Virus record (IMG/VR): IMGVR_UViG_3300045391_004734
Location: 1-47,797 of that record
Origin: a virus
Direction: 5' to 3' (one strand)
Length of the DNA stretch: 47,797 bases
The notes under the pieces were generated by a model. That model saw only the letters and a program-made list of their open reading frames with translations, ran no database searches and was not told the origin of the DNA. Numbering within the stretch: the stretch's first letter is position 1; every line of letters starts with the position of its first letter. The translations under genes were made by a program, and so were the position numbers. Of the stretch, positions 3,580 through 47,199 are shown piece after piece.

Positions 3580-3623
3580 GCTCCCTCCGCGATACTCAAC
3601 ACCCTCCGGTATACTTATATACC
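3580..3623 (+). promoter_or_regulatory. composite element: GCTCCCTCCGCGATACT - 11 nt - GGTATACTTATATACC (candidate late promoter/activator site)
   Basis: same 17-mer at 47156-47172 and a 15/17 copy at 45212-45228, each followed after exactly 11 nt by a GGTATA-N4-TATAxC palindrome. Confidence 0.55.
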
Positions 3624-3684
3624 AAGAGGCTATAGCTAGCATGGGGCTAGCTGAGCTTAGAGTAACGTGTAATAAGAGGAATAA

Positions 3685-4173
3685 ATGGCAAACAAAGATT
3701 TACCACGGGGAGCGGTACCCTACGGACGCATTCTAAGATGCCGTCCATATACAACCTCCGCAATTTGTTATCCAGGTGACGTCGTCATTCTAGATAACGC
3801 AGGACTAGTCGCTCCTGCATCAGCAGGAACAACTCCTGTTATTGGCGTAGCTGCCACTTACGCAGCTTCCGGCGCTGAAGTATTGGTTTGGGATGATCCA
3901 AACCAAATGTTTATGATTCAATCTGATGATGCAACAGATCCTGATGCTCAGACAGATGTTGGTCTTAACTACAATCTAGTCGCAACAGCAGGAAGTTCTA
4001 CTTATAAGGCTTCTCGAATGGAGCTTGATGGAAGCACCGGTGCTACTGATTCTAACCTTCCATTTCGCTTATTAGCAATTGAGCGAACTGTAGATAATGC
4101 TCTAGGTGGATATGCAGATTGCGTCGTCATTCTTAACAACCATCGTCTAAAACTTGGCACTGTTGGCTTATAA
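3685..4173 (+). CDS. virion protein, possible head decoration protein
   Basis: RBS AGAGGA; 162 aa Gly/Ala/Val-rich sequence immediately upstream of the major capsid gene; resembles DUF2190-type head proteins from memory only. Confidence 0.5.
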   Translation: MANKDLPRGAVPYGRILRCRPYTTSAICYPGDVVILDNAGLVAPASAGTTPVIGVAATYAASGAEVLVWDDPNQMFMIQSDDATDPDAQTDVGLNYNLVATAGSSTYKASRMELDGSTGATDSNLPFRLLAIERTVDNALGGYADCVVILNNHRLKLGTVGL

Positions 4174-4186
4174 GGGATATTAATAT

Positions 4187-5125
4187 ATGTCTAAACTATT
4201 AAGAAGTAATTTTAGTGATTTTTACGGAAGTGCAATGCTTCCTGCTTTGGAAGAAATTTTCCGAAGCTCAATGGAACAACATCCCTCTCGTCGCGACCAA
4301 ATTTTCGTAACGAAGAAAATTAATGGATCTATATGGCAAGCCACTGAAGTCCATGACATGCCTTTGTTCGAACAAATGTCGGAGAACCAAGACTATAGTA
4401 TGAACTCACCAAAACCAGGTGTAAGCAAAACTATCACTCCGGTGAAATACGGTTTAGGTTTTGCGATCTCTGAGGAAGCTGCAAGCGACGGCAAATTTGA
4501 TTTCATCGCAGATGCTATGAGAAAAATGGGCGAAAGCGCAAAAGAATCTCAAGAGATTTCAGCAATGAACATTCTTAACAACGGTTTCGGTTCTTCTGGC
4601 TTGTCTGCTGACGGTCAATACGTTTTTGACACTGACCACAGCCTTCCCTCTGGTGGAACTTTCTCTAACTTGTTAACAGCTGCCGATCTTTCTATTACGT
4701 CTTATGAGGCTGCTCTTTTAGCAATGGAAGTTAACTTCGTAGGTGATAGTGGTATTATCAAGAACTACAAAGGTGCAAACCTAGTTGTTCACCCAACCTT
4801 CAAACGTACTGCTAAAGAGTTATTGAATTCTGATCGTAAAGTTAATCCAACTTCTGACAACAGCGCTTCTAATGCCTACAACTCATTTAAAGATGAAGGC
4901 GTAGGAATTATATCTAGTCCACATATTAGTGACACTGACTCCTGGTTCTTACTTGCAAAACCGGAAGATACTGGTCTTCGCATCGTAGAACGTGAAGGAA
5001 TTGTTACTAAAGCTGGTGGAGCTGACGTCGGTTTCATCAACGATTCTATTCTCTATAAATCAAAATATAGAGAAGCAATTGCTGTAACTCATCCTTACGG
5101 CATCCTCGGCAACGCAGGCGCGTAA
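4187..5125 (+). CDS. major capsid protein
   Basis: 312 aa after the scaffold gene; followed by a strong hairpin; sequence resembles HK97-fold (Mu gpT-like) head proteins from memory. Confidence 0.75.
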   Translation: MSKLLRSNFSDFYGSAMLPALEEIFRSSMEQHPSRRDQIFVTKKINGSIWQATEVHDMPLFEQMSENQDYSMNSPKPGVSKTITPVKYGLGFAISEEAASDGKFDFIADAMRKMGESAKESQEISAMNILNNGFGSSGLSADGQYVFDTDHSLPSGGTFSNLLTAADLSITSYEAALLAMEVNFVGDSGIIKNYKGANLVVHPTFKRTAKELLNSDRKVNPTSDNSASNAYNSFKDEGVGIISSPHISDTDSWFLLAKPEDTGLRIVEREGIVTKAGGADVGFINDSILYKSKYREAIAVTHPYGILGNAGA

Positions 5126-5151
5126 TCCAAACTAGTTCTTAGGAACTCGAA

Positions 5152-5185
5152 AGAGGGAGGCTTTGTTCTCCCTCTCTGTCTTTAA
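5152..5185 (+). terminator. hairpin after the capsid gene (AGAGGGAG-8 nt-CTCCCTCT) followed by a T-rich tract
   Basis: 8-bp perfect stem 5152-5159/5168-5175, then CTGTCTTTAATTCTT. Confidence 0.55.
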
Positions 5186-5204
5186 TTCTTAAGGAGATTT
5201 TCTC

Positions 5205-5528
5205 ATGGCCCAAGGCTGGAAACTAACTACCCTCGCTCAAATAAATCTAACAAGCGCCGGCACTAGACAAGCAATTGCCGCAGGACCGGGACCTTATTCC
5301 CCTTGTGTAATTATCACGGCTGCTCACGGAAACTCAGGTAATATCTATGTTGGCGACTCTGCTGTAGCCTCCAATCGTTACGCTGCAGTTCTCGCTGCTA
5401 AATCTAGTTACGTTCTTACTGGCCCCATCATGGGCGGTTTTGAACAACTTATAGACCTAAGTACGATTTACATAGATGGTGCAACCACTAACGACGACGT
5501 TCAAGTAGCGTATTTCGAAAAACAATAA
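5205..5528 (+). CDS. hypothetical virion protein (107 aa)
   Basis: RBS AAGGAG; position between capsid and fiber genes. Confidence 0.6.
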   Translation: MAQGWKLTTLAQINLTSAGTRQAIAAGPGPYSPCVIITAAHGNSGNIYVGDSAVASNRYAAVLAAKSSYVLTGPIMGGFEQLIDLSTIYIDGATTNDDVQVAYFEKQ

Positions 5529-5537
5529 AGGTGAGCC

Positions 5538-5834
5538 ATGTCGAATGCGCGAGCCTCTAATGTTTGGGATGTAAACGCCACAGGCGCTCTTACGGCTGGT
5601 AAAGGTCAACGCGTAACTGGTGTTATCGTCACTTCGACAAATACTAACGCCTCTCTAATTTTAAAAGAATCAAACTCTGGCTCTGTTAAATTTCGTTGGG
5701 ACATCGCCGCCTCAAATACGTCGAACCATATATACCTTCTCGATACTCCAATATTTTTCTCTCAAGATATTTACGTTGCCACTCTTACAAATTGTGTTGC
5801 TCAGATAATTCTTGATCAAGGTTTAGGTGGTTAA
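5538..5834 (+). CDS. hypothetical virion protein (98 aa)
   Basis: RBS AAGGTGAG; tightly packed in the structural operon. Confidence 0.6.
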   Translation: MSNARASNVWDVNATGALTAGKGQRVTGVIVTSTNTNASLILKESNSGSVKFRWDIAASNTSNHIYLLDTPIFFSQDIYVATLTNCVAQIILDQGLGG

Positions 5835-8320
5835 TGGCTTACCAACTCTTAGATTTTAGTGATTTACTAGATTACTGTGTTGCTGAGCTTGGCCTACAAA
5901 GCTCAGATACAACAAGCATAGTAAAACTAAAACGTATCATGAACGCCTGTTACATGAATGAAGTAGTTCCATTTAAGCGATGGAAATGGCTTCAAGGCCA
6001 TACTAAGGTTGTTCATAAAGCGGTTTACCATACAGGTACTGCTAGCGTCTCAGGAAGTTCAACGTCAGTTACTCTATCTTCTGCTCCCGCATTGGGATTT
6101 GGTTCCTTTGCTGGGTATAACTTTGCTGTAGACGGCTTTGACGAAATTTATACAATATCTGCTCACACTGCAAATACGACGGCAATTACCCTTACATCAG
6201 AATATCAAAGCGCAACAGACTCTGCTGTCTCTTACAAAATTTGGAAAGACGTAATTAACTTACCAACCGATTGTCGTGAGACAGTAGAGCTCTGGCACAA
6301 TAGGGATCAAGGCCTTGGTGTAATGAAAACCATGGGTTGGCAAGATCTTCGTGAAGAAGTAGCTAATGACCCCCGCCTAGAAGGTTTTCCAGAATTTTAC
6401 AACACAATTGATTTTTATGACCCAACGAGTGGTGATGCAGAAACTGAATCGGATCGCTATCGTCAAGCTCGAATTTACCCCGCTATCACTCGGGAAAATG
6501 TCACCATCAACGTTGATTACATTAAAGAAGTAAGTCCTCTTAATTCTGATAGTGACGAGCCCTTAATGGCCATCGAAGAGCGTTTAGTTCTTTGCTATGG
6601 AACTCTCAAAACAGCATGGAGAACATTAAAGAGATCTGAATCAGATGCCCTGATCAATGAGAGATTGTTTAAAGAAACCCTAGCTCGAATGGCAGGTCAC
6701 ATTGAGGACTCATTTGACATTCCGCGCTTACAGCCAAGCACAAAGTATATTAGAGCCAGCCGTCAACGAATTGGTAGAGCAGCTATTCAATCAAGCTTTG
6801 GCGGCAACAGTGCAAACAATAGCGATATTACTTATCTTGAGAACATCACATTAAACGCTGGTCAAATCACCGGAAACTTTACTGTAAGTTCTGGGATTAC
6901 AGTTGATGGTAGAGACATTTCGGTTGATGGTGCTGATCTAGATGCACATATAGCTTCCACCGCGGCTCATGGTGCAACAGGAGCTGTAGTAGGTACCACA
7001 AATACTCAGACTCTAACTAATAAGTCTATTGATGCTGACACTAATACAATTACTAATATTGAAAATGCAGACATAAAAGCCGCGGCTGGAATAGTATATA
7101 GTAAACTAAACCTTGCTTCGTCTATTGTGAATACTGACGTAGCCGCCGCCGCAGCTATTGATGCGACAAAGATTGCCAACGGCAGTGTATCTAGTACTGA
7201 GTTTCAATACCTAGATGGGGTTACATCTGCCATTCAAACACAACTAGATGCTAAGCAACCGATTGACTCTGATCTTACTGCAGTAGCGGGTCTTTCTTCT
7301 AATGGAATTATAGCCCGTACTGGAACCGGAACGGCAAGCGTTAGAACAGTAACAGCAGGTTCTTCTAAGATTAGTGTAACAAATGGAGATGGGGTTTCAG
7401 GAAATCCTACTGTGGACGTAACAGAGGCAAATCTGTCTCACGCGAATATTGGTGGAGTTACACCAATAGCTGGCGGAGGTACGAATAATGGATCGTTAGC
7501 TGTAACTGCCGGTGGCGTTGTCGGAACTGATGGAAGCAAGCTTGTTAATTCAGGTGCTGGTACTTCAGGAATGCCTTTAAGATCTGCTGGCTCAGGAACT
7601 GCTGCTTTCGCGTTTGGTGTTTCTCAAGCTAAGACAGCTAACTATACAGCAGCTACGAACGACACATTAATTAAAGTAGATTCTAGTGGTGGAGCCTTTG
7701 ATATTACTCTGCCAACTGCTGTAGGCATAGACGGAAAAGAGTATGTAATCATCGCAACTGCTGTCGGCTCTAACGCTGGAGTTAGTTTAAAAACTACAAG
7801 CTCCCAAACAATAGGTGGCCTCGCCTCAGCGAATATCATTTTAAATACTGCGAAGGATTCTATTCGCGTCGTTAGTGATGGCGCCAATTGGCAAATTGCC
7901 AGTTGGGAAATCACCGTGGGAGCCTTTTACACTGGGCGACCCACTGGGACCATTGATGGTGCTACAGATAATATTTATCCAACTAAGGTTACTGACCCAA
8001 ATACAGATTATGCAACAGGGAGCGGAACTTATACAGCCCGATATGCAGGGAAATATACCATTAATATTATGGCGTCCATTGCCGTAACAACGGGAAGTTT
8101 TACCTCTGTTACTTTACGCAAAAATGGTTCCAATATTTATTCCAAAACATTCCCATGGTCAGCAACTCTCACCAACAATCTCCCCGCCACCATGGACCTC
8201 AACCAGGTTGCCTTGGCAGCAGGCGATACCCTAACGATTCGCTTTGGGGGCAATGGCAGCCCGACTTTCGAAAACACCGCCTCAGTCCACTGGTTATGTG
8301 TCACAAGGACAGGAAACTAA
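5834..8320 (+). CDS. tail fiber protein
   Basis: 828 aa; TAATG coupling; shaft motif IDATKIANGSVSSTEFQYLDGVTSAIQTQLDAKQ common in phage fibers; C-terminal jelly-roll-like domain. Confidence 0.75.
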   Translation: MAYQLLDFSDLLDYCVAELGLQSSDTTSIVKLKRIMNACYMNEVVPFKRWKWLQGHTKVVHKAVYHTGTASVSGSSTSVTLSSAPALGFGSFAGYNFAVDGFDEIYTISAHTANTTAITLTSEYQSATDSAVSYKIWKDVINLPTDCRETVELWHNRDQGLGVMKTMGWQDLREEVANDPRLEGFPEFYNTIDFYDPTSGDAETESDRYRQARIYPAITRENVTINVDYIKEVSPLNSDSDEPLMAIEERLVLCYGTLKTAWRTLKRSESDALINERLFKETLARMAGHIEDSFDIPRLQPSTKYIRASRQRIGRAAIQSSFGGNSANNSDITYLENITLNAGQITGNFTVSSGITVDGRDISVDGADLDAHIASTAAHGATGAVVGTTNTQTLTNKSIDADTNTITNIENADIKAAAGIVYSKLNLASSIVNTDVAAAAAIDATKIANGSVSSTEFQYLDGVTSAIQTQLDAKQPIDSDLTAVAGLSSNGIIARTGTGTASVRTVTAGSSKISVTNGDGVSGNPTVDVTEANLSHANIGGVTPIAGGGTNNGSLAVTAGGVVGTDGSKLVNSGAGTSGMPLRSAGSGTAAFAFGVSQAKTANYTAATNDTLIKVDSSGGAFDITLPTAVGIDGKEYVIIATAVGSNAGVSLKTTSSQTIGGLASANIILNTAKDSIRVVSDGANWQIASWEITVGAFYTGRPTGTIDGATDNIYPTKVTDPNTDYATGSGTYTARYAGKYTINIMASIAVTTGSFTSVTLRKNGSNIYSKTFPWSATLTNNLPATMDLNQVALAAGDTLTIRFGGNGSPTFENTASVHWLCVTRTGN

Positions 8321-8680: not shown

Positions 8681-10417
8681 ATGGGTGTTTCGGCAACCAG
8701 TATCGTTCAAATATGGGATACAGGGGCTACCACTAACGGTGGTGGCTTTGATTCTACTATTGCGAACGCTGGCACTGATTACTCGAAACAAACTAGTGCT
8801 CAGGCTGCTCTTACAGGATTGACCTCGGCAGGAGCTGGAAACGTCTTACTGTGTGGTACTGCAAACACTGCTTGGATTGGCAATTGGATATGCATGACCG
8901 GTGGGACCAACGTTAACCAAGGTTTCTATCAAATTACTGGAGCAACTGCCAACACAGATATAACCCTTTCCACTCGTAAAGACGGCACAAGTGTAGCAAG
9001 CGGAGTTGTCGCAAGTGGGACCGGAAACGTTGGCGGAGCCTTTAAGCTCGGAGCTACATCAGCAAATCGCACTGACGATGACTTCTTCGAAGCCGCTTCA
9101 AACTCTGGCGGAGCAATCTATTATATTAAAGGATCTCACACCACAGGCGGAGCAATTTCCATAGCAGCCACAGGAACAGCTACTGCGAAAAATATGGTAG
9201 TAGGATTTAGTTCCACCAATGGCGATAACCCAAGTATAGCCTCAGGAAATCAACCAAGTATTAACTGCGGAGCTAACGCCCTCGTTTTTGGAACTCATTG
9301 GGAAGTTGCATATTGTACTATTACTGGCACAGCAGCAGCTATGACGACAATGGGAGGAAACTGTAAAGTAACCTCATGTAAATTAAGTAATACTTCTGGA
9401 ACAGCTAACCGTACTGCAATTACACTCGGTAACGTTTCAAGTTTAATTATAGGTTGTGATCTTGCTTCAACAAACGGTTACGCAGCCGCGTTCCCAAACG
9501 CTAACGTTCACACATTTATAGGTTGCAGAATTCACGACTCCGTAAGCGGCATTCGTCCTAGTGCTGCTTTCTCTGGAAATTTAATTGTAAATAAAAATAT
9601 AATCTCGGGATGTTCTACTGCTGGCATTGATTTGTCGGCTGGTGCTTTTACGGGTCAAGCAATGATTAGTGGGAACACTCTTTATGGTGCATCCACTCCT
9701 GCAGGTATTGGCTTATCATTTGCCGCAAGCTCTGGTGGTATAAATCTAATTTCAAATATTATCGCAAATTGGACTACTGGTGTAAGTGGGGCTGGCGCTA
9801 TCACAGCCCAATGGTCTTTAAACAACAATTTCTCTGGAAACACTACCGACCGAACTAATTGGAGCTCCGGCACGGGGGATATTGCATTAGCCCCATCATT
9901 TACAAATGCAGGTGCTGGGGATTTTTCTACCGGAACCAATATGCAACAAGTAGGAGGTCTTGGTTCAAGCTTTCCTGCTGGCTTAACTCCTACGTATGAG
10001 GACATTGGAGCTTCACGATCTAACTATGCCGGATGGTTTACAGACGTAGATCTTTCTAAAATAGATTCTGCATACTCATTCAAATATAACACCTTAGGGT
10101 CTAATAATAGAACTGGAACAGCTACGATACCTTCTCTTACTGACACAAAAACTGGTGTTGCTGGTTATGGTGGAACTGGAACCTACGACGGCTCTGATCG
10201 CTGGACAAGTATTCCTGCTGGGAAAGTACTGGTATCTCAAGGAGCCTATAAGGCTAATTCCACAAGTAACAACGTCACTCCAACTTACGACGATACTAAT
10301 CTAGTTAACTCGAATGTTAAAAGCGGCGTCACTTATGGGGTGACTGGAGTTGGTTCTTACACAGCCACAGGTGGCTCTTCTGCTTCCGCAGGTGTTGGAA
10401 AGATGCGGGTAAACTAA
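8681..10417 (+). CDS. tailspike-like protein with parallel beta-helix repeats
   Basis: 578 aa Gly/Thr/Asn-rich; recurring turns such as NKNIISGCSTAGIDLS, ISGNTLYGAS, ISNIIANW. Confidence 0.6.
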   Translation: MGVSATSIVQIWDTGATTNGGGFDSTIANAGTDYSKQTSAQAALTGLTSAGAGNVLLCGTANTAWIGNWICMTGGTNVNQGFYQITGATANTDITLSTRKDGTSVASGVVASGTGNVGGAFKLGATSANRTDDDFFEAASNSGGAIYYIKGSHTTGGAISIAATGTATAKNMVVGFSSTNGDNPSIASGNQPSINCGANALVFGTHWEVAYCTITGTAAAMTTMGGNCKVTSCKLSNTSGTANRTAITLGNVSSLIIGCDLASTNGYAAAFPNANVHTFIGCRIHDSVSGIRPSAAFSGNLIVNKNIISGCSTAGIDLSAGAFTGQAMISGNTLYGASTPAGIGLSFAASSGGINLISNIIANWTTGVSGAGAITAQWSLNNNFSGNTTDRTNWSSGTGDIALAPSFTNAGAGDFSTGTNMQQVGGLGSSFPAGLTPTYEDIGASRSNYAGWFTDVDLSKIDSAYSFKYNTLGSNNRTGTATIPSLTDTKTGVAGYGGTGTYDGSDRWTSIPAGKVLVSQGAYKANSTSNNVTPTYDDTNLVNSNVKSGVTYGVTGVGSYTATGGSSASAGVGKMRVN

Positions 10418-11976
10418 TGCGCAAGACTCAATTCTTAAACCTCATGCCTTGGGATGGTGGACTTAGCACTGCTGTTGATGAAGGATTTAGTGACCCTAAC
10501 ACACTACGCATTGCAGATAACGTTGTCTTCTCTACCGGAGGACAGCGGGAGAAAAGACAAGGCGGAAGTTATTTTGATTCTTCATCTATTGGTGCTGTTG
10601 ATGTCCTGGACATTCGGGATTATTGGCGTACAGATGCTTCAAATAATAAGCAACAATTACTTCTATCTTATACCAGTGGAAAAAAACTTTATAAGTATGA
10701 TTCCGGCGGTGTTCGTACGGAGATCACAGGGACTGGTGGACCGAGCGGTACCGTAACAACGGTAACTTCTGCTTGTATGAATGAACTCGCTATTTTCTTT
10801 TTTAATGGAAGTACCAATACGCCCATAAAATATAATCCAGATTCTGCTTCCACCTACGCAGCTCTTGGTGGCTCACCACCGGCTGCTACCTTTGGTACTG
10901 AATGGCTTGGCAGACTTTTCTGTAACGACCAAACAGATCCTGATCTTCTTCACTACTGTACTACAGGGAATCCAGAAGAATGGGGAGGCGTAGGAGATTC
11001 TGGTGCTATTCCTATTGGAACTGGCGATGGTGATGAAGGCGGTATTATTGGAGCTATACCTTTTAAAGGTATGCTCTTTGTCTTTAAAAAATCCAAAATA
11101 TATCGCATCAGCGGCTACGCACCTGAAGAATGGATTGTTGAACCCGTCTCCTACTCCATCGGATTGGTAGGACCTAAAGCTCTTTGTGCAATAGGTGATC
11201 AGGATATAGTTTTCGTCTCACGACGTGGAATTCATTCTTTATCCGCCACACAAAACTATGGAGATGTTGAATCCAAGTATTTAAGTTCTGCCATTCAACC
11301 CACTTTCAACACAGACTGGTCTCGCTCAAGACTTAGTTATGTAAGTGCTTGTCACGTTGAAAGCCTAAACTCTGTTGCTTTCGCTATGACCGCTACTGGT
11401 GATAGTGCAAATAATGATCTGTATCTTTATAACTACAACGTCGGTCGTTGGTATCGTTGGCCTGATCTTTCCTGCCAATCACTCTCTACCCGTGACACAG
11501 GTACTTTTAGGAAGCTTGTGCTTGGCACTAGCGCTGGCCGGGTTATCCAGATGCAAAATGGTACCTACACCGATTTTGGCACCACTGGGATCACATATCG
11601 GCTTAAGACCCCTACCCTGTATCCAGGTAATGATATAACGCGTTTAAAAGGCTTTTACCGGCTTTATTTGTACTATAAGCCACTTAATACCTTCACCATT
11701 ACGGTAACGGTCCAAATTGACAAGCAAGACACTCAGAGCTTTACGTTTTCTAACAACGGTTCCGGGGATGCCCTTGGTACCACGTTTGTCCTTGGGACCT
11801 CATTACTGGGGATATCTGGTATAATAGAACCATTCAACGCCCCTATTGAGGGTCGTGGGAGAGGAATTACCGTTGAGATCACTCAATCGGGAACGAATGA
11901 ACAAGTCACCATTTATGCACTCCAAATAGAATACGAAGACGCGGAATTCAACGATAACACCACTCAAAGTGAGTAA
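10417..11976 (+). CDS. virion structural protein (519 aa)
   Basis: TAATG coupling to the upstream gene; large ORF in the tail module. Confidence 0.6.
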   Translation: MRKTQFLNLMPWDGGLSTAVDEGFSDPNTLRIADNVVFSTGGQREKRQGGSYFDSSSIGAVDVLDIRDYWRTDASNNKQQLLLSYTSGKKLYKYDSGGVRTEITGTGGPSGTVTTVTSACMNELAIFFFNGSTNTPIKYNPDSASTYAALGGSPPAATFGTEWLGRLFCNDQTDPDLLHYCTTGNPEEWGGVGDSGAIPIGTGDGDEGGIIGAIPFKGMLFVFKKSKIYRISGYAPEEWIVEPVSYSIGLVGPKALCAIGDQDIVFVSRRGIHSLSATQNYGDVESKYLSSAIQPTFNTDWSRSRLSYVSACHVESLNSVAFAMTATGDSANNDLYLYNYNVGRWYRWPDLSCQSLSTRDTGTFRKLVLGTSAGRVIQMQNGTYTDFGTTGITYRLKTPTLYPGNDITRLKGFYRLYLYYKPLNTFTITVTVQIDKQDTQSFTFSNNGSGDALGTTFVLGTSLLGISGIIEPFNAPIEGRGRGITVEITQSGTNEQVTIYALQIEYEDAEFNDNTTQSE

Positions 11977-11977: not shown

Positions 11978-11993
11978 GGTATATTAATATACT
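11978..11993. promoter_or_regulatory. palindrome GGTATATTAATATACT (perfect 14-mer core GTATATTAATATAC)
   Basis: read directly; ends 1 nt before ATG 11994. Confidence 0.6.
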
Positions 11994-12797
11994 ATGGCCT
12001 CAATTTCAATAACCAAAACATATGATACAGGAATAGTTCTTACTGAAGCTGACCTAGATAATATTATATCTAGTGTCGAAACTTTCATTAATACAACGAA
12101 GATCAATGATGATAATATTCAAACCGCTGGGATCACCGGCTCTTCAAAGCTTATTGATGGAACCGTTACAACTGCAAAACTTGCAACGGATGCAGTAACA
12201 ACGGTCAAAATAACAGATCTTAACGTCACAACAGGGAAGATCAATGACCTTGCTGTCACTGCCGGAAAGATAGCTGCTGATGCAGTTATTACAGCAAAAA
12301 TTCTTGATGCGAATGTTACTACTGCGAAGATTGCAGATCTGGGCGTCACCACTGCAAAAATAGATGATCTTGCAGTTACTACTGCAAAAATAGCCGCAGC
12401 CAACGTGACTCGTGCTAAGCTAGCAGCTCTCGGTCAGCAAGTATCAAGTTCTTCAGGCTCCACCACTCCGACAAGTACAGGAGATATTCCAAATTGTAGT
12501 GTTACTATCACCACCACAGGACGCCCAGTTCTCCTATTTCTCCAACCTGACGGCTCCGGCAAAGCAAATATGTTAAATGACGTAGGTGGTTCAAGCATTC
12601 AATACAAGCGCGACGGATCGGCTATTGCTGACTTTGGTATCTATGGTTACGGGGCAAATAGCAGTACGAAGGGATTCCATCAATGTGTTTTCCTGGATGT
12701 CGTCTCCGCTGGTACTTACACCTATAAAGCAACATATGTCCATTCTTCCGGTAACGGTTTTATTGATTACGTAAAGTTGGTGGCTTATGAACTCTAA
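11994..12797 (+). CDS. tail fiber-like protein with 10-aa tandem repeats
   Basis: 267 aa; about nine xVTTAKIxDL units; C-terminal beta-rich domain. Confidence 0.65.
   Translation: MASISITKTYDTGIVLTEADLDNIISSVETFINTTKINDDNIQTAGITGSSKLIDGTVTTAKLATDAVTTVKITDLNVTTGKINDLAVTAGKIAADAVITAKILDANVTTAKIADLGVTTAKIDDLAVTTAKIAAANVTRAKLAALGQQVSSSSGSTTPTSTGDIPNCSVTITTTGRPVLLFLQPDGSGKANMLNDVGGSSIQYKRDGSAIADFGIYGYGANSSTKGFHQCVFLDVVSAGTYTYKATYVHSSGNGFIDYVKLVAYEL
12156..12431 (+). repeat. in-frame 30-nt (10-aa) tandem repeat array inside the fiber gene
   Basis: NVTTAKIADL / GVTTAKIDDL / AVTTAKIAAA / NVTRAKLAAL etc; boundaries approximate. Confidence 0.8.
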
Positions 12798-14071: not shown

Positions 14072-14083
14072 GGAGATTAATAT

Positions 14084-19278: not shown

Positions 19279-19294
19279 GGTATATTAATATACT
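19279..19294. promoter_or_regulatory. palindrome GGTATATTAATATACT (perfect 14-mer core)
   Basis: read directly; 12 nt upstream of ATG 19267 on the - strand. Confidence 0.6.
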
Positions 19295-21909: not shown

Positions 21910-23054
21910 TCTTTTGATCTCCGTAACACAATTCTAGGTCCATTCTTCGGACCTCCTGTTTTTAAATGTTGTATTTGGTAGACATGATCTTTATCCACTC
22001 TGATCTTATTAACCTTGTGGGATAATAATATACTAACAATTTCTTGTTCGAGTGTCAAAAGCACTGGTGACTGGGCCTCAAGGTCTATGTACTCTTTGAA
22101 AAGTTCAGCTACGGCTGGAACCTTTTCTAGGTCAGTAGGCCACTTCTTTTTAGGAAAAGTCTTGAAGTATTCTTTTAAGGCTTCAACGTCTTGTCCCCAG
22201 CACTCTTTAGAGAAGTTACAGAAAGCACATTTGATGGAGCCAAGAGCAAAGTCTCGCGGAGCTTCAAGTGGATTTCTTTTTTCGTTGATGTATTGGGCCA
22301 CGAGAAGAAACTTCGCTTTCACGCGCTCGTAGACAGCCTTACTTGGTTTAAAGCGAATCTCTCTCATACGTGAGTCGTTTTTTCCATAATAAATGAGAGC
22401 AGCATGATCAACACCCGCTCCTTGAAGGAAGTCACCTTCGTCAAAGAAGTACATGTTTAACTGGTAGAAATTCATTGCCCAAAAAGGATCATTTAAATCG
22501 TTCAAGAACGCCTCAAGGTCATCGACGTAGTAACTGTCAACGCCGAACTCCACTACATGAGGATTAGTTTTTAGAGAGTAAGTTACCTCATCCCAATGTG
22601 TCTTATGGCTAATCGAGAACTTATCCTTCTTACTCTTCACGTCGATTAAACACTTAAACTTTGGAGACACAATCACTGCGTCAATACTTCCTTCGACATA
22701 AGTGCCGTCAGGGAGCTTGAAGAAGCGAACAACTTGTTGCTTGTAACGGAACTTAATGTCTGTGTCTTTAAAGGCGTCTTCGAACTGACGCAAAACGTGC
22801 CACTCAACTGAGTGACCAAGGTTTAGAAGACGTTGGGTCTCTGGTGACTTGTTTTCTTTTTCGTATTCAGCATTACCTAAGAACTCATTCTGAGCAAAGG
22901 CTAAAGCGCGAGTACATTCACCGGCACTAGATGGTCTAAGAGGAGCAAACTTTTTCTTTGGGTCTGTCTTCTCTTTTTCCATGTTGAGTTTAGTGTGGTG
23001 ATCAAGAAGCTCCACGTATCCTACTTGAGGTCCTAGTACTTTTACTTCTTCCAT
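21906..23054 (-). CDS. PD-(D/E)XK nuclease, Cas4/RecB-like with Fe-S cysteines
   Basis: GSIDAV .. LIDVKSK .. YQLNMY motifs; one N-terminal Cys (AGEC) plus CAFCNFSKEC. Confidence 0.65.
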   Translation of the reverse strand: MEEVKVLGPQVGYVELLDHHTKLNMEKEKTDPKKKFAPLRPSSAGECTRALAFAQNEFLGNAEYEKENKSPETQRLLNLGHSVEWHVLRQFEDAFKDTDIKFRYKQQVVRFFKLPDGTYVEGSIDAVIVSPKFKCLIDVKSKKDKFSISHKTHWDEVTYSLKTNPHVVEFGVDSYYVDDLEAFLNDLNDPFWAMNFYQLNMYFFDEGDFLQGAGVDHAALIYYGKNDSRMREIRFKPSKAVYERVKAKFLLVAQYINEKRNPLEAPRDFALGSIKCAFCNFSKECWGQDVEALKEYFKTFPKKKWPTDLEKVPAVAELFKEYIDLEAQSPVLLTLEQEIVSILLSHKVNKIRVDKDHVYQIQHLKTGGPKNGPRIVLRRSKD

Positions 23055-25030: not shown

Positions 25031-25406
25031 TCTCTAACCTATTCTTTACAAATTCCCATTCATATTTTTTAAGAACAAAAACACGGCCGCTCTCAACTTC
25101 AATTCGTGCGTTGTCGTACTCTTTATCAAGTACAAACAAAATTCTATTCCCTCTGACTAACGTGAAATCTCCGATTGGTCTTACAACTCCCCCAGGAAAC
25201 TCTTCCATCCCAGGCATCTTGAAAGCTTCTTTAACCATCGCTGAAGTAACTATTCTTGTGTCCTCCAAGAACATAGTTTTACAAGCTTCCCAGAGATTAT
25301 CTTTGCCACTGATTCTTTTACTTATAGGGAGTACAAAGTATTTTAATATACCTCGAAACGCTGCTGACTTCGTGCCAGGGTTTCTAATTGAGTTAGGCTT
25401 CTTCAT
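24990..25406 (-). CDS. hypothetical protein (138 aa from ATG 25406)
   Basis: continuous ORF; overlaps the polymerase start by 41 nt. Confidence 0.5.
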   Translation of the reverse strand: MKKPNSIRNPGTKSAAFRGILKYFVLPISKRISGKDNLWEACKTMFLEDTRIVTSAMVKEAFKMPGMEEFPGGVVRPIGDFTLVRGNRILFVLDKEYDNARIEVESGRVFVLKKYEWEFVKNRLENVGKAGFKDADRD

Positions 25407-26326: not shown

Positions 26327-26504
26327 CGCGAATTTCTTTCCAGCGTGTAAGATCACCTGACTCCTCCTTAATTTTGGCGGTAATAGATTCTATCTCTTTA
26401 TTGAACTGAGCATTCTGTGCTTTCAGCACTTGATTTTTTAAATGACGTATATAAATATACCCAGTAGCCAGAAAAGCTATTATTGCTACATATACTAAGC
26501 TCAT
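26274..26504 (-). CDS. i-spanin-like protein (N-terminal TM + coiled coil)
   Basis: MSLVYVAIIAFLATGYIYI then charged helical region; ATGA coupling to the endolysin. Confidence 0.5.
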   Translation of the reverse strand: MSLVYVAIIAFLATGYIYIRHLKNQVLKAQNAQFNKEIESITAKIKEESGDLTRWKEIRDAKLRDLNKPSSTDKQE

Positions 26505-27140: not shown

Positions 27141-27156
27141 GGTATATTAATATACT
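27141..27156. promoter_or_regulatory. palindrome GGTATATTAATATACT (perfect 14-mer core)
   Basis: read directly; 19 nt upstream of holin ATG 27122. Confidence 0.6.
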
Positions 27157-28252: not shown

Positions 28253-28313
28253 ATTAAGTTCTCCTTAAGATAGGTATATCATTATCCTAAGATTATAGCA
28301 ATTCCTGCTAGTT

Positions 28314-35263: not shown

Positions 35264-35279
35264 GGTATATAAATATACT
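35264..35279. promoter_or_regulatory. palindrome variant GGTATATAAATATACT
   Basis: both arms GGTATA/TATAC intact, centre TAAA. Confidence 0.5.
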
Positions 35280-35328: not shown

Positions 35329-36035
35329 GAAGCTTATAGTGAGACTCCCCCTTTGCAGGGGGCCTCAAGTGCCTAATACGACTACGTCGTTCTCTACCAC
35401 TGACGTGGTAATCTCAGGCAATAAATCAACGTGGGGATGTTTTTACCTAGCGAGCGAAGGAGATAACGAAGTTATGTCCTGAGCGAGCGTCACTCTGCGT
35501 AGCAGAAAAGGATCACTAGTGCCGCCGATACAGGCGGCCACTACGCTAATTAACATTTGACGAATGGCTGGAGAACGAGCGGCCTTAGTGCGGACGCGGA
35601 ATTAGCGGGCTGCGAGTTCTACTACTAAAGTAATATTACGCCTGGTTTAAAAGTATCGCAAATCGTGAGGTGACTCGCGCAGTTTTGAGGGCTCAAGTAA
35701 GTTGTAGAAGAGATTATAGTTTTGCGCGGGAGAGTGGTGTATAAAAATTATTTTTAGGGGTCTTGGGCGTTTGGAGTGTAAGTGGTTGAAAAGACCTAAA
35801 ACGAGTGTATAGGTCTCAAAAAAGTACTTTCCGCCGCCCCGGCTTGAGACAGGCTTGGCGTCGGGGGAGCTACGTATACAAATATACCGTATTTCCGTTT
35901 CAAAATGGATCACCAGTATCAGGGCTTTTTGACAAAAGTTTTTTCTTTGGTCAAACTAGTTATATGAGCTCGGAATATGTAAGAAGTACTTATCCGAGCG
36001 ATGGCAAAACGCGGTACGTAACATAGGAGGCCGAT
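35329..36035. other. about 700-bp ORF-poor, GC-enriched, hairpin-dense region between divergent blocks (candidate structured RNA, origin or control region)
   Basis: hairpins at 35347-35362, 35378-35390, 35395-35410, 35459-35479, 35518-35542, 35664-35679 (GTGA loop), 35792-35816, 35928-35955; only short implausible ORFs. Confidence 0.4.
35873..35888. promoter_or_regulatory. palindrome variant CGTATACAAATATACC
   Basis: arms GTATA/TATAC intact, centre CAAA; 147 nt upstream of GTG 36036. Confidence 0.45.
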
Positions 36036-37356: not shown

Positions 37357-37375
37357 AGTCACTCGTGCTTTTGCA
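37357..37375 (+). repeat. 19-nt element AGTCACTCGTGCTTTTGCA, 18/19 identical to the - strand copy at 27177-27195
   Basis: read directly; 7 nt upstream of the perfect palindrome. Confidence 0.7.
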
Positions 37376-37381: not shown

Positions 37382-37397
37382 AGTATATTAATATACC
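37382..37397. promoter_or_regulatory. palindrome AGTATATTAATATACC (perfect 14-mer core)
   Basis: read directly; 38 nt upstream of TTG 37436. Confidence 0.6.
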
Positions 37398-37435
37398 ATT
37401 AGAAGATAAACCAGTTGTACGTAAGGAGGCTAGAT

Positions 37436-38742: not shown

Positions 38743-39627
38743 ATGAAGAACGTAAAAATAGCTATAGGTATAATATTATACGCTGTCTTGGCATTCAGTC
38801 TTGGCTTTAGGCTAGGGACACTTGTGGCTCACCCAGAAGGCGCTCGCTCAGTACAAGGCTTCGTCCAAGAAGGAACACTTCGAACACCATCACCTTATAA
38901 TGGAAACTTCTCTAGAGAGAGTGTTAAGCCTGTTAGGAAACACACAAAGAATGCCGTGAGAATTGCAATCTTGGATACTGGCTTTGATCAAAAGGAACTA
39001 GAACATTACAACGTCGTCCTGTGTCCTGAGTCTTACGATGCCGTAGATCAAAAAGAGCAGATAGGAAAAGATGAGATAGGTCATGGAACTGCAATGGCTT
39101 TGATTGCTGCTGGTTTTGCTGCTGGATCTGATTACTGCATTATTGGAATTAAAGTCTTAACTCCTATTCCTATGAGTTTTGATCAAGCATTAGCAGCAGT
39201 GGTGTTAGGCTTAAAGAAAGCTGGTGATTACAAGGCTGATGTTGTTTCAATGAGTTTTGGTGGAAAGAATTATGTCATTGAGGAGCAAGAAGCCTTACAG
39301 AAACTAAACGCTCAAGGAGTGGTATTGTTTACCGCCGCCGGAAATGACAGAGTGAATCTTGATGAAGCCTGCGTGTACTACCCTGCTTGCTACAAGCTGC
39401 CCCTACTTATAACTGTAGGTGCACAAAACGAAGAAGGCCAAAAAGCTCAGTACTCAAATTATGGAACTAAAGTAAGTGTCTGGCTTCCAGGTGAAGTGAA
39501 TGGATTACGTGGAACCAGTGTCTCTACGGCCATTGCTGCTGGTCAGTATGCAAAGTTTTTAGCGACTAGACGAGCAGAAAAACGAGCTAAGTTTGGTTAT
39601 AGGCCTAAGAGTGCAAAAGAAAAATAA
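38743..39627 (+). CDS. secreted or membrane-anchored subtilisin-like (S8) serine protease
   Basis: N-terminal hydrophobic signal; catalytic D (IAILDTGFD), H (GHGTAMA), oxyanion N (AAGND), S (GTSVSTA). Confidence 0.75.
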   Translation: MKNVKIAIGIILYAVLAFSLGFRLGTLVAHPEGARSVQGFVQEGTLRTPSPYNGNFSRESVKPVRKHTKNAVRIAILDTGFDQKELEHYNVVLCPESYDAVDQKEQIGKDEIGHGTAMALIAAGFAAGSDYCIIGIKVLTPIPMSFDQALAAVVLGLKKAGDYKADVVSMSFGGKNYVIEEQEALQKLNAQGVVLFTAAGNDRVNLDEACVYYPACYKLPLLITVGAQNEEGQKAQYSNYGTKVSVWLPGEVNGLRGTSVSTAIAAGQYAKFLATRRAEKRAKFGYRPKSAKEK

Positions 39628-42419: not shown

Positions 42420-42590
42420 ATGAGACGAAATAAAACGCTCACGAATTCACGAGCAGACAAGATTGAACACTTACGAGACGTAACTCAAGCGTCAGGCAAG
42501 TGCACTATATGTCCACCTAACAAAGGCTGTAATAAACCACGCAAAAAGCGCGGCGAAAAACAACCAAGGTATAAAGACAAGCGAAAATAA
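42420..42590 (+). CDS. very basic micro-ORF (56 aa), uncertain
   Basis: no clear RBS; Lys/Arg-rich with CTICPPNKGC. Confidence 0.25.
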   Translation: MRRNKTLTNSRADKIEHLRDVTQASGKCTICPPNKGCNKPRKKRGEKQPRYKDKRK

Positions 42591-43875: not shown

Positions 43876-43892
43876 ACGTACCGCCTTTTAAA

Positions 43893-43908
43893 GGTATATA
43901 ATTATACC
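43893..43908. promoter_or_regulatory. palindrome variant GGTATATAATTATACC
   Basis: arms GGTATA/TATACC intact, centre TAAT; last base overlaps the upstream stop codon. Confidence 0.5.
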
Positions 43909-44150
43909 TACTCTAAAGTGTTTTTAATCTTAATTAAAGTTGTTTTTACTTTTAATAAATTTGCTTCTAGTCTTTTAATAAGCGCTTTTAAATTATTCCC
44001 GTCTTTACTGTGTCTATGAATTTCTCTGCCATAGTGATTTAGTAAAATATCGTAAAGCATAAAATCATTTAAAAACTCGTTAACTCTCTCAGAAAATAAT
44101 GCTTTTGCCTCTGTAAGATCTTTTGTTTGTTTCATTACTGGATTAGTCAT
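43908..44150 (-). CDS. hypothetical early protein (80 aa)
   Basis: start overlaps the end of the upstream micro-ORF. Confidence 0.5.
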   Translation of the reverse strand: MTNPVMKQTKDLTEAKALFSERVNEFLNDFMLYDILLNHYGREIHRHSKDGNNLKALIKRLEANLLKVKTTLIKIKNTLE

Positions 44151-44330: not shown

Positions 44331-44346
44331 AGTATATTAATATACT
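44331..44346. promoter_or_regulatory. palindrome AGTATATTAATATACT (perfect 16-mer)
   Basis: read directly; TTGAAA lies 14 nt upstream of TATATT on the - strand. Confidence 0.6.
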
Positions 44347-44613: not shown

Positions 44614-44629
44614 AGTATATTAATATACT
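44614..44629. promoter_or_regulatory. palindrome AGTATATTAATATACT (perfect 16-mer)
   Basis: read directly; TTGGCA lies 14 nt upstream of TATATT on the - strand; about 45 nt upstream of ATG 44568. Confidence 0.6.
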
Positions 44630-45211
44630 TTTTATTTTTCATGCCAAGTTATGCTAAGTTTATGTCTCAAATGAATAAACTCGTTATAGCTATATCTTTC
44701 TACTAGTGGTTTTATCAAAACTGATTAAAACCTTAAAAAACGTCATTTTTTTGGCTGATAAACTGGTCTCATTTTGAGTTTTTACCTCTTAAAATAAGTT
44801 TAAATGTATTATATTGCTGAAGAAGTGTATATCTATACACTTACTGATATCACAGGGTTATTTAGTGCTGTTTAATGCGATTTGGCTAGTTATTGCCTCA
44901 ATGACTGCAAAATATATTTATTAGGTCCCCTAAAATTGAGTCAAAACCCACGCCTTTTCACCCACCCCTCTAAATTATTTTTCAACGGTAAGGCTTATAC
45001 ACAATGCTTAATGATATCAATGGCTTAAGCCTGTCTCGCTTTGATACCAAAACTTTTTGGCCCGCGTATCTGCCCGCCATCCCCGTAAATTTTTAATATT
45101 GGTACCTTAAAATGTGCCAGGAACACTTTTGAAAAACAGCTAAATTATTGAAATTACACAGAAAAGACCTGCCGACCCAAATGAGTCTACTATTACGTCG
45201 ACCCAGATTCC

Positions 45212-45255
45212 CCTCCTTCCGCGATACTTGCGCCCTGATGGTATATTTATATACA
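45212..45255 (+). promoter_or_regulatory. composite element: CCTCCTTCCGCGATACT - 11 nt - GGTATATTTATATACA
   Basis: 15/17 match to the 3580 and 47156 17-mers, identical 11-nt spacing; ends 37 nt before the terS ATG. Confidence 0.55.
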
Positions 45256-45292
45256 GATTTACCCCTTAAAGTGGTGGGGTACCGGAGGCGAG

Positions 45293-45700
45293 ATGGCGAA
45301 GAAACCCCAGCGATGGGCTCCAACATCAAAAGACAACAAAACAGAAGACAGACTTGTCGACCTGATCGACACGATTGCTGACTTCGAGGAATTTCGACTC
45401 AAGGTACTTCCCGCTATTCAACAAGACGTCAAGGCGGGCCTGAGTGCAGAGGAGCTGCGAAAGAAATACCACGCATTGGTACAGGCTCGCCAGATCACCG
45501 CTCTCTTTCTAGAGACGGATCACAGCAAAGCAGCCTCAGTCGCGCAACAACTAATTGACCGCACAGAAGGAAAATCTGTTGAGCGCCAAGAAACCACTCA
45601 CAAATTTGAGAACCTGTCTGATGCAGAGCTTGATGCTGTCCTAAATTCGAAGCTCAACAAGATTAAATCTGACGAAGAGCTCTCTAGTACAGAGCATTGA
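45293..45700 (+). CDS. terS: small terminase subunit candidate
   Basis: GGAGG RBS; 135 aa; stop overlaps the terL start. Confidence 0.55.
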   Translation: MAKKPQRWAPTSKDNKTEDRLVDLIDTIADFEEFRLKVLPAIQQDVKAGLSAEELRKKYHALVQARQITALFLETDHSKAASVAQQLIDRTEGKSVERQETTHKFENLSDAELDAVLNSKLNKIKSDEELSSTEH

Positions 45701-47190
45701 TGTCCAAGCCACTGTCCAAGCTTAGCCGAGCTGAAAAAGAACAAATGATGATTGCTCTTGAAGAAAAAGAGCGGAGAGCACGTAATACAAAAGCTCTTTA
45801 CGTTCCTAATGAGGGTCAGCGCCCAGTCCACGCTTCAGACAAGATGATCCGCGCTGTTTTCAGCGGAAACGGAAGCGGTAAGACGACCATGGGATGTAAT
45901 GAGCTGTTGTGGGCCATGACTGGTTGGAATCCCATAAAGCAAGTCTACACGCCAGTCCCGGCGCGCCTGATTGTTGTTCTCGATAGTCCATCAAAAGTTC
46001 AAGACGTTTGGCTCCCGGAGCTTCAGAAGTGGGCCAATATAACAGAAGACATGCTAGAGAAGCGCGGAAAGCCCTATTACTCCGCCATTGTCTTCCCGAA
46101 TGGGTCCGAAGTCATTTTCATGTCACATGAGATGAATCCCCTGCTTTTTGAGTCTATTGAGGCGGATTACGTCATTTTTGACGAGCCTAGTCCTCACGCG
46201 GTCTATAAGGCCCTCCTACGGGGTCTTCGCAAAAAGGGTAGCAAGCCGTGGGTCCTCATGCTTGGAACGCCTATAACGGCTGCCTGGATGCGTAAAGAGA
46301 TATATGAAAAATGGTCACGAGGCGAGGCCCCAGATGTGGAATGCTTCCGCTTTTCTAGTGACGTAAACAAGCAAAACTTGAACTGGGATTTTTACGAGAA
46401 TGTTTTTTTCAAGAACCTATCCGAAGAAGAAATCCAAATCAGACGACATGGTTCATTTTTCGATTTATCTGGTCTTGCTCTTGCTCATCTTTTTAACCGC
46501 AGTGTCCACGTTGTTCGTCCCTTTGCATGGAATCCTGATTGGTCTGTGGTAATAGCGATAGACCCTCACCCGTCTAAGGCCAACGTTGCCTGTATGTTGG
46601 GTGTGGATCGAGATGGTTATTTATATTATATCAAAGAATTAACATCTGAGCTTCCCCCACGAGCTTTCGCCCGGCAACTTAGGAACTGGTACTCTAACTT
46701 CCGCGTTCACGATATCATCTGCGACTCTATAGGCTCCGCCCCTACCACTGGAGGAGATGGAAACAAATCTTTCATCGAAGTACTGAACGAAGAAGGAGTA
46801 CGAGCCCGCGCTACGACCTTCCAAGATAAAAATGATGAATCCTTCATTTCTAAAATACAGCAGGTCTTAGAAATACCAGCGGAGCCAAATAAACTTGGAA
46901 AGTTCTACCCCCTACTCCGAGTATTCTCCGATTGCGTAGGCATCATTGGGGATATTGAGAATGTCTGCTGGCTCAAATACAGAAACGCTGACGAATATAA
47001 ACCAAAACTAGATATTTCCCACAAAGATTATCTCGCTACCCTTAAATATGCCCTCACTGCCCACATCGCTGGGATTTACGCTAAGTCACGCGTGATTCGA
47101 CGCCCGGAAAGTTCATGGACTGGCTCGTCCGGGCGGGGACAAAACCCTCTCTATGGCTCCCTCCGCGATACTAAGGGTTTCAAGGTATAA
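45700..47190 (+). CDS. terL: large terminase subunit
   Basis: Walker A FSGNGSGKTT, Walker B VIFDEPS, C-terminal nuclease-sized domain; ATG 45700 (the track gives TTG 45697). Confidence 0.85.
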   Translation: MSKPLSKLSRAEKEQMMIALEEKERRARNTKALYVPNEGQRPVHASDKMIRAVFSGNGSGKTTMGCNELLWAMTGWNPIKQVYTPVPARLIVVLDSPSKVQDVWLPELQKWANITEDMLEKRGKPYYSAIVFPNGSEVIFMSHEMNPLLFESIEADYVIFDEPSPHAVYKALLRGLRKKGSKPWVLMLGTPITAAWMRKEIYEKWSRGEAPDVECFRFSSDVNKQNLNWDFYENVFFKNLSEEEIQIRRHGSFFDLSGLALAHLFNRSVHVVRPFAWNPDWSVVIAIDPHPSKANVACMLGVDRDGYLYYIKELTSELPPRAFARQLRNWYSNFRVHDIICDSIGSAPTTGGDGNKSFIEVLNEEGVRARATTFQDKNDESFISKIQQVLEIPAEPNKLGKFYPLLRVFSDCVGIIGDIENVCWLKYRNADEYKPKLDISHKDYLATLKYALTAHIAGIYAKSRVIRRPESSWTGSSGRGQNPLYGSLRDTKGFKV

Positions 47191-47199
47191 TATTATAAC
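47156..47199 (+). promoter_or_regulatory. composite element: GCTCCCTCCGCGATACT - 11 nt - GGTATAATATTATAAC
   Basis: 17-mer identical to 3580-3596; lies in the last codons of terL and ends 12 nt before the portal ATG. Confidence 0.55.

Follow-up and report, generated by a model that had tools for sequence, protein, structure and literature searches.

A lineage-specific family of GTATA-N4-TATAC palindromes, candidate dispersed operators or transcription signals, in a podovirus-like phage genome

Why should a phage carry one short palindrome in front of most of its transcription units? The question is raised by IMG/VR virus record IMGVR_UViG_3300045391_004734, positions 1 to 47,797 (47,797 nt, here called the window), a tailed-phage, podovirus-like genome in which copies of GTATA-N4-TATAC recur at gene boundaries. 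The contig is circular (bases 1-42 recur at 47756-47797), which gives a genome of 47,755 bp with about 42% G+C. An earlier note, made from the letters alone, had drawn attention to the palindrome and had named three candidate roles, namely an operator for a dimeric regulator, a promoter core, and a hairpin for RNA processing. The first of these fits best: with moderate confidence we read the motif as a family of dyad-symmetric operators for a putative phage-encoded dimeric regulator. The promoter core is the weaker candidate, no sigma factor or RNA polymerase gene having been found to go with it, and the RNA hairpin is weak.

The perfect 14-mer GTATATTAATATAC occurs six times, at 11979, 19280, 27142, 37383, 44332 and 44615, all as previously reported, and is absent from 100 dinucleotide-preserving shuffles of the sequence. 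Exact copies of GTATA-N4-TATAC number 13, against a shuffle mean of 0.02 and a maximum of 1; the similar counts in such shuffles that the earlier note had named as grounds for refutation were thus not obtained. Its claim of at least 11 copies holds as to the excess but falls two short, having missed 26447 and 38768, each of which lies within an open reading frame (ORF). Five sites that it gave as intact-armed copies at 3608, 35264, 35873, 43893 and 45240 are real but had each been counted from the preceding base; their starts are 3609, 35265, 35874, 43894 and 45241. When up to three mismatches are allowed, 25 matches are found where 2.6 are expected, and these include every degenerate copy announced near 4174, 20556, 20917, 28273 and 47184 (present at 4175, 20555, 20918, 28274 and 47185); further degenerate copies lie at 14072, 22020 and 25338. 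As a family-wise control, the commonest palindrome with 5-bp arms and a gap of 0-10 was counted in each of 40 first-order Markov genomes, and this top palindrome reached 2-5 copies per simulated genome, compared with the 13 observed. By class, there are six perfect copies, seven with intact arms and a variant centre, and one-arm-defective copies at 22020, 28274 and 47185; the real family comprises about 12 strong sites and several weaker ones with one imperfect half-site.

The extent of the element is well defined. TATA-N4-TATA occurs 14 times, and because all 14 occurrences carry a 5' G and 13 of the 14 a 3' C, the outer G and C are part of the motif. Eleven sites were oriented by the downstream gene and their information was analyzed position by position. 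Positions 1-5, 7 and 9-14 are invariant, position 6 is T in nine of the 11 sites, and position 8 is A or T; the outer five positions of either arm are thus constant around a variable, A/T-rich 4-nt centre. The preceding base is always a purine, A in six sites and G in five, so the GG that the earlier note had placed at the start of the motif is not general. The following base is mostly C or T. Information is negligible beyond positions -1 and +15 over the 15 nt examined on each side. The whole element is thus contained in 16 bp, R-GTATAT-T-W-ATATAC-Y, with AGTATATTAATATACC as the 16-mer form of the site. Invariant arms around a variable centre are typical of half-site recognition by a dimer, which the base pattern suggests here.

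Placement is equally distinctive. Intergenic gaps make up 8.1% of the genome and hold 11 of the 13 exact copies (binomial P = 6.2e-11). The earlier statement that all copies are intergenic or straddle a start or stop codon is nearly correct and fails for the two copies inside ORFs. A copy stands at the head of each co-directional gene block, most transcription units are preceded by one, and each of three consecutive small genes at 44.6-43.7 kb has its own. The distance to the next start codon does vary, as had been claimed, from 1 to 148 nt, but it is not featureless: six copies end 12-21 nt ahead of the start codon with a Shine-Dalgarno (SD) sequence alone intervening, and for the remaining copies the distance is 38-148 nt. 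In three cases the palindrome starts 0-2 nt past the preceding stop codon, and the gap there consists of the palindrome and the ribosome-binding site and nothing else.

Comparison with other genomes sets the motif apart as a property of one lineage. Megablast against GenBank phages gave no match, with distant relatives at the protein level alone, and searches of genome and metagenome contigs with the portal protein and the large terminase (TerL) found no relatives. Metagenomes hold hundreds of related TerL and polymerase sequences, many on contigs of 45-50 kb, and one of these is close. This closest relative, IMG/VR contig 3300045391_002267 (the sister phage below), has a TerL 74% identical and DNA about 70% identical to that of the window and is syntenic with positions 36.3-47.8 kb plus 0-2.1 kb. 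It contains no GTATA-N4-TATAC. At the homologues of 37383, 44332, 44615 and 45241 it carries instead AGTAATATTACT or close variants (AGTAA-N2-TTACT), and GTAA-N2-TTAC occurs in it four times where 0.25 is expected. In the pairwise alignment at 44615 the flanks are kept (TTCGTTG downstream, TTGGCA upstream) and the palindrome is exchanged. Since the palindrome differs while its flanks are conserved, both half-sites have been replaced together and the spacing of the arms has been altered. Such a concerted exchange is seen when operator specificity diverges, and the alignment suggests that this may have happened here. One copy of the sister phage's palindrome, GTAATATTAC, is also present in the window, at 35630.

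No comparable set of palindromes is present in more distant relatives (TerL 53-65%, polymerase 48-57% identical) or in a complete 46-kb relative, MW202601. When IMG/VR was scanned for the exact 14-mer, at least 117 contigs were returned, none related to the window and with two copies at most in each, so that the family is found in no other genome. The 124 kb of candidate-host DNA that surrounds the matching tRNA genes (described below) likewise lacks both palindromes. Because the motif is absent from the sampled relatives and from this candidate-host DNA and is not clustered in other viral contigs, the specificity is lineage-specific and travels with the phage. The palindromes appear to be a dispersed signal, operator or transcriptional, that is peculiar to this phage lineage and, to judge from the genomes compared, a new instance of such a system. 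One of the distant relatives (GCA_034680565.1 contig JAXOUH010005234.1, L124) has 11 coding-strand copies of GATACTA within 16.5 kb, most of them close ahead of genes and at least one with TTGCAA 17 nt upstream; at the places where palindromes stand in the window, it appears to rely on ordinary sigma70 promoters whose -10 is GATACT. Another distant relative repeats cttaTTTGACA ahead of genes.

How would such sites work as operators? A putative dimer would read the two 5-bp half-sites around a relaxed A/T centre. In most units the sites would overlap the promoter or follow it closely, and others occupy minimal operon gaps; with both kinds of position covered, occupancy would be expected to block initiation or elongation genome-wide. 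The likeliest role would be the silencing of lytic, lysis and late genes in a lysogen, or else switching between temporal classes. A silencing system is needed because the phage is apparently temperate, with an attP-like fragment beside an integrase-like gene. The operator reading explains most features, among them the variable register to promoters, the concerted replacement of both arms, and the imperfect-arm copies in equivalent positions: copies with one imperfect half-site occupy places like those of the perfect ones, as does the one 21 nt ahead of the ParA-like gene start.

The protein itself was sought with Pfam, PHROGs and NCBIfam in all predicted ORFs of at least 50 amino acids, with relaxed thresholds for small ones, and the ORFs of the sister contig were searched with Pfam for a regulator, sigma factor or RNA polymerase. 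The helix-turn-helix (HTH) proteins annotated in MW202601 were considered as binder candidates and set aside, since the window encodes none that corresponds to them. Those genes that were found in both the window and the sister contig, and are missing from the sampled relatives that lack the motif, are all small (55-177 amino acids), a size that would fit a small regulator but not a polymerase. Two of them, 44571-44347 and 44150-43908, are only 36-39% identical between the window and the sister phage.

Several findings weigh against operators. No ORF matched an HTH, ribbon-helix-helix, repressor or ParB family in Pfam, PHROGs or NCBIfam, and the Pfam search of the sister contig likewise yielded no regulator, negatives that do not prove the protein's absence; an AlphaFold2 model of the 74-amino-acid product of the first gene of the leftward operon was uninformative (predicted local distance difference test score 63, predicted template modelling score 0.30). 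Matches to sigma70-type promoters show no genome-wide enrichment and most palindromes have no convincing adjoining promoter, so that a separate promoter for an operator to control is often not visible. The copy at 35265 heads an accessory, conversion-type operon that is perhaps active in the lysogen. Finally, where the centre is asymmetric it reads xTTA along the direction of transcription in five of five cases (two-sided P = 0.06), and an A-rich 5' flank is found on the sense side alone of the 11 oriented sites; neither is predicted by a purely symmetric operator.

The last two observations lead to the strongest rival, which we consider unlikely. The palindrome would be a self-contained, phage-specific promoter core, of which a sigma-like or RNA-polymerase-associated phage factor reads the left half and the A-rich flank (aaA-GTATAT) as a -10-type element, with transcription starting near the right end, as in the gp36 promoters of phiEco32 and SU10. 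Both the common direction of the asymmetric centres and the flank would follow. The sense sites, aaAAGTATATT, resemble the gp36 motif tAATGTATAtA (about 8 of 10 positions by eye, not identical), and the portal and adaptor domains of the relatives are of SU10 type. A copy opens each co-directional block, the six copies 12-21 nt from a start leave room for an SD sequence alone, and related phages that encode their own specificity factor also show co-varying promoter motifs. What such a core leaves unexplained is the strict right arm and the dyad symmetry, and likewise the different but perfectly symmetric replacement in the sister phage. A tblastn search with phiEco32 gp36 reached a best E-value of 1.7 in the window and gave no homologue in the relatives; neither a sigma factor nor an RNA polymerase turned up among the ORFs of the window (Pfam, PHROGs, NCBIfam) or of the sister contig (Pfam). 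Other sites fit poorly: a leader has no space at 11979, the palindrome at 35265 is bracketed by a consensus -35 and a -10, and the three composite late sites lack the A-rich flank and have a -10-like GATACT 12 nt upstream instead. A bolder proposal, in our estimate rather unlikely, is a self-sufficient symmetric 16-bp signal served by host RNA polymerase and a small phage protein without recognizable likeness to sigma factors, acting as promoter core or as a symmetric, elongation-halting 'stoperator'; the phage would then rank among the first temperate tailed phages assigned to Bdellovibrionota.

It is in the neighbourhood of the palindromes that other promoter-like signals bear on this choice. 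The motif does not behave as part of a host sigma70 -35/-10 promoter: -35-like hexamers lie 1 to 21 nt from it in no fixed register. Indeed the palindrome has no fixed register to promoter elements at all, because it lies in the spacer at 35265, over the -10 at 22020, and downstream of the -10 in the composite sites. At 35265..35278 it fills the spacer of a near-consensus minus-strand promoter, TTGACA-N18-TACACT, whose -10 is followed by an ATG after 6 nt in a leaderless arrangement. The degenerate copy at 22020..22033 (-), sense GTATATTATTATCC, overlaps the -10 of TTGACA-N17-TAGTAT.

The composite sites combine the palindrome with a 16-nt element, CTCC(C/T)TCCGCGATACT, which lies exactly 12 nt ahead of three late-gene palindromes, at 3581-3596, 45213-45228 and 47157-47172, and ends in the -10-like GATACT with no recognizable -35. 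The first copy, CTCCCTCCGCGATACT at 3581..3596 (+), precedes the palindrome GTATACTTATATAC at 3609..3622, which is 62 nt upstream of the gene 3685-4173 that precedes the major capsid gene. The second, CTCCTTCCGCGATACT at 45213..45228 (+), precedes the palindrome GTATATTTATATAC at 45241..45254, 38 nt upstream of the small-terminase-like gene at 45293. The third, CTCCCTCCGCGATACT-N12-GTATAATATTATAA at 47157..47198 (+), has a degenerate palindrome (47185, final A) and precedes the portal gene, whose start is at 47212 and which spans the contig junction. The upstream element may be an activator-dependent late promoter. No match to TCCGCGATACT-N12-GTATA-N4-TATA was found in metagenome or viral collections. 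A second, similar copy of the upstream element, CACCCTCCGGTATACT, is present at 3600-3615, where it overlaps the palindrome. The FliA promoter of Bdellovibrio, TTAAG-N16-CCGATA (PMC3627812), was rejected as an identification: inspection shows the CGATA core, but none of the three copies has TTAAG at the right distance. Just upstream of the small-terminase-like gene, at 45262-45285, there is also a hairpin-capable sequence, CCCC-N8-GGGGTACC, which recurs upstream of TerS, the small terminase, in two relatives that lack the palindrome (L124 and L126) and could be a late-operon leader structure or a packaging-related site.

A second accompanying signal is the 19-mer AGTCACTC(A/G)TGCTTTTGCA, with two occurrences, 27177-27195 (-) and 37357-37375 (+), against 0.01 expected. 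It precedes two perfect palindromes, at 7 and 21 nt, each time with a TTGAC motif a short way upstream of it, and may serve as a further promoter or regulator signal. A weaker copy is seen near 22040-22060 (-). The palindromes concerned are that at 37383..37396, 7 nt past the 19-mer AGTCACTCGTGCTTTTGCA and upstream of a likely TTG start at 37436, and that at 27142..27155, between the ParA-like gene and the lysis cassette and 19 nt upstream of the ATG at 27122.

Among the other perfect copies, 11979..11992 is squeezed between two genes, 2 nt past the stop of 10417-11976 and 1 nt ahead of the ATG of 11994-12797, and 19280..19293 lies 12 nt upstream of the minus-strand ATG at 19267 with the SD directly after it. 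The copy at 44615..44628 heads the leftward small-gene operon, 43 nt ahead of the ATG at 44571; within that operon follow the perfect copy 44332..44345, 1 nt past the upstream stop codon and 21 nt ahead of the ATG at 44310, and the copy 43894..43907, which abuts the stop codon of 43908-44150 and is 18 nt upstream of the ATG at 43875. The degenerate copy in front of the ParA-like gene is at 28274..28287 (-), sense GGATAATGATATAC, with one imperfect half-site and a distance of 21 nt to the gene start. A recurrent start context, SD-(G)TACGT-ATG, is seen in the window at 27127-27135, 43876-43884 and 37416-37421 (e.g., AAGGAGTACGTATG and AGGAGGTACGTATG) and also in L124, at 5870-5874 and 8865-8873.

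The palindrome GTATACAAATATAC at 35874..35887 lies in a 785-nt divergent control region, 148 nt upstream of the gene at 36036. Much of that region, 35330-36035, is a 700-nt G+C-rich non-coding stretch between divergent operons with many short hairpin-capable stretches; Rfam gave no match on it, and it could be an origin or control region. Further along, at 42636-42436 (-), a sigma70-like promoter (TTGACA-N18-TATTCT) and a terminator-like hairpin lie opposite the gene of a 56-amino-acid basic protein (42420-42590) and could produce an antisense RNA of about 160 nt.

Copies within ORFs are of mixed standing. The exact-arm copy at 26447..26460 lies within the spanin-like ORF 26274-26504, 90 nt upstream of the next gene start. 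That at 38768..38781, GTATAATATTATAC, is in the signal-peptide coding region of an S8 protease gene, and because the coding sequence there is kept in the sister phage it is probably a coding coincidence and not a member of the family. Membership is uncertain for the one-mismatch copy at 25338..25351, within ORF 24990-25409 and 307 nt upstream of the DNA polymerase start.

A further possibility, which we regard as improbable, is that the palindrome acts in messenger RNA, as an AU-rich hairpin or single-stranded segment just 5' of the SD sequence, bound by a phage translational regulator, ribosomal protein S1 or a nuclease and setting translation or processing for each cistron. Many copies do stand 12-21 nt from start codons and directly 5' of the SD, and the palindrome of the sister phage keeps its pairing potential. 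At 4175 and 14072 the stretch between SD and ATG is likewise made up of the core ATTAATAT, and 20555 and 20918 have a related AT-rich spacer, ATAATAATAT. The hairpin itself is marginal (-1.4 kcal/mol, z = -0.4; -1.0 kcal/mol in the sister phage's version) and lies outside the favoured fold in its native context. Degenerate copies break its pairs by G-A, U-C and A-A mismatches and not by G-U wobbles, several copies are upstream of plausible transcript starts (e.g., in the promoter spacer at 35265), and Rfam gave no match. Nor does the motif fit an intrinsic terminator or stable G+C-rich hairpin: its energy is no better than in shuffled controls, and no terminator-like site coincides with a palindrome. 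The suggestion in the earlier note that some copies double as an SD sequence plus AU-rich spacer is borne out for degenerate copies alone: those at 4175, 14072 and 20918 read GGA(G/T)A-W-TAATATA-(1-3 nt)-ATG, and at 20555 a related AT-rich spacer overlaps the ATG. By their sequence these four are probably ordinary strong ribosome-binding sites and not family members.

Some temperate phages depend on host repressors. That the sites serve a global regulator or nucleoid protein of the host (probably a member of the Bdellovibrionota) recruited by the phage would agree with the failure of Pfam, PHROGs and NCBIfam to turn up a phage-encoded binder, but it is a decidedly improbable explanation, given that neither palindrome occurs in the 124 kb of candidate-host DNA at the matching tRNA genes, that the closest relative uses a different palindrome and arm spacing at the same positions, and that the exact 14-mer is unclustered in all of the at least 117 viral contigs holding it.

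Least probable among the alternatives weighed, and doubtful in the extreme, are dispersed centromere-like sites (parS/OB-type) for the ParA-like ATPase that double as silencers, in the manner of KorB-OB on RK2 or the scattered sop sites on N15. The gene for a ParA-family ATPase (27200-28252) does have a degenerate copy upstream and a perfect copy downstream, and KorB binds 16-bp palindromes near many promoters (PMC11790492). No ParB or KorB homologue was detected in the window, though, and no small centromere-binding gene beside the ParA-like gene, which is followed by the lysis cassette; the pair of attP and integrase points to integration and not to plasmid maintenance, and the tight association of sites with gene starts has no rationale in partition. 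LexA and Fur-family boxes seem not to fit in arm sequence and spacing parity, and tyrosine-recombinase core sites, nick sites, attC sites, REP (repetitive extragenic palindromic) elements and restriction sites were set aside for their size, symmetry or distribution.

Among the genes of the window, structural genes encode the portal protein, a Mu gpT-like capsid protein and TerL; replication genes encode a family A DNA polymerase, a DnaB-like helicase, a Cas4-like exonuclease and a RusA-like resolvase. The window also has a lysis cassette and encodes the ParA-family ATPase, an integrase-like protein and a small tyrosine recombinase. Directly upstream of the integrase-like gene 28314-29381 (-) lies a tRNA-Ala fragment, 29493-29531 (-), which comprises the 3' part, and no complete tRNA gene is present at that fragment. 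This arrangement is the usual signature of an attP site, and the fragment is accordingly termed attP-like on the strength of its sequence and position. Exact matches to its 31-nt tRNA core were found at the 3' end of tRNA-Ala in 17 genome contigs, of which 13 belong to metagenome-assembled genomes of Bdellovibrionota; ARAGORN, applied to seven of the 17 loci, identified six as tRNA-Ala(GGC) and the one tested Elusimicrobia locus as tRNA-Ala(CGC). On the basis of the attP-like fragment and these matches, the phage is probably temperate and its host probably one of the Bdellovibrionota. A near-consensus promoter, TTGACA-N18-TATATT (29562-29533), reads into the attP-like tRNA fragment.

The 8-kb segment 27200-35250 has no counterpart in the sampled relatives and looks like an acquired lysogeny and conversion module. 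It encodes the ParA-family ATPase, the integrase-like protein, an Ead/Ea22-like protein, a DUF7448 protein and a polysaccharide pyruvyl transferase, and it also holds a fragment resembling the C-terminal domain of Xre/ParS antitoxins. Between 28274 and 35265 there is no copy of the palindrome. Outside the segment, at 19505-20215 (-), lies the gene of a 236-amino-acid protein of the tyrosine-recombinase family, 42% identical to its counterpart in a distant relative (ENA ERZ23486754 scaffold_127, L146); it appears to be a core gene of the phage group, distinct from the integrase-like gene by the attP-like site. In that same relative, about positions 1-6800, some twenty small ORFs are filled with a 12-nt periodic repeat (GACGCGGTTCCAGACGCGG...), individual 10-mers of which have 25-55 occurrences.

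Predatory Bdellovibrionota have very few known phages and, to our knowledge, none with a known regulatory circuit. The lineage described here, which appears to have gained an integration module and probably infects such predators, is otherwise uncharacterized, and the motif maps its transcription units. If the sites are operators, one small protein controls nearly every transcription unit through a 16-bp site, and the two would form a compact, orthogonal repressor-operator pair, for which the natural variant of the sister phage, AGTAA-N2-TTACT, makes the swapping of specificity directly testable. If they are promoters, they would point to an unrecognized family of phage transcription specificity factors.

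With which known systems, then, does the palindrome family compare? The operator of phage 434 is 14 bp long, with conserved outer bases and a non-contacted centre that prefers A/T, and related phages differ in operator specificity; the operators of lambdoid phages form clusters at two control regions. The build of the site is alike here, but the sites are dispersed over the whole genome. The gp36 motif tAATGTATAtA lies 6-8 nt upstream of transcription starts (PMC4281155), with AATGTA centred at -11.5 (PMC12276001). Likenesses to it are the resemblance of aaAAGTATATT and the use of a single-element signal before middle or late genes; the gp36 motif is non-palindromic, whereas here the right arm is as conserved as the left and there is no gp36-like gene. 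KorB-OB and ParB-parS systems likewise have 16-bp palindromes near promoters on a replicon with a ParA-type ATPase (PMC11790492), but here there is no ParB or KorB gene, and the sites are at or after promoters and not at variable, long-range upstream positions.

Two systems are closer. Cluster A mycobacteriophages (L5 gp71) carry more than 20 stoperators of roughly 13 bp at promoters and in short intergenic gaps, where the immunity repressor, bound at stoperators and operators, blocks initiation and elongation; stoperator sequences diverge between related phages of different immunity (PMC9283540, PMC6550527). The phage described here is similar in being probably temperate and in having copies genome-wide at promoters and in short gaps. 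It differs in that its sites are palindromic, whereas stoperators are asymmetric, active in one orientation alone and bound by a monomer with two DNA-binding domains, and no homologue of the immunity repressor with its HTH and stoperator domains was found in it. The OA operator of KorA on the IncP plasmid RK2/RP4 is a perfectly symmetric 12-bp site at seven promoters, bound by a small HTH dimer, of which the perfect class I copies bind tightly and the class II copies, with one defective half-site, weakly (PMC2665229). Alike here are the short symmetric site at many gene starts and the hierarchy of perfect and one-arm-defective copies; the differences are a phage in place of a plasmid, a site of 14-16 bp whose centre varies, roughly double the number of copies (some inside operons), and a KorA-like protein that was not detected. 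Because the cognate protein was not detected and stoperators are asymmetric, the family falls into neither of these protein-defined classes. By analogy it appears to resemble most the KorA operator in function and the stoperators in distribution, an ordinary kind of control element in an unusual phage.

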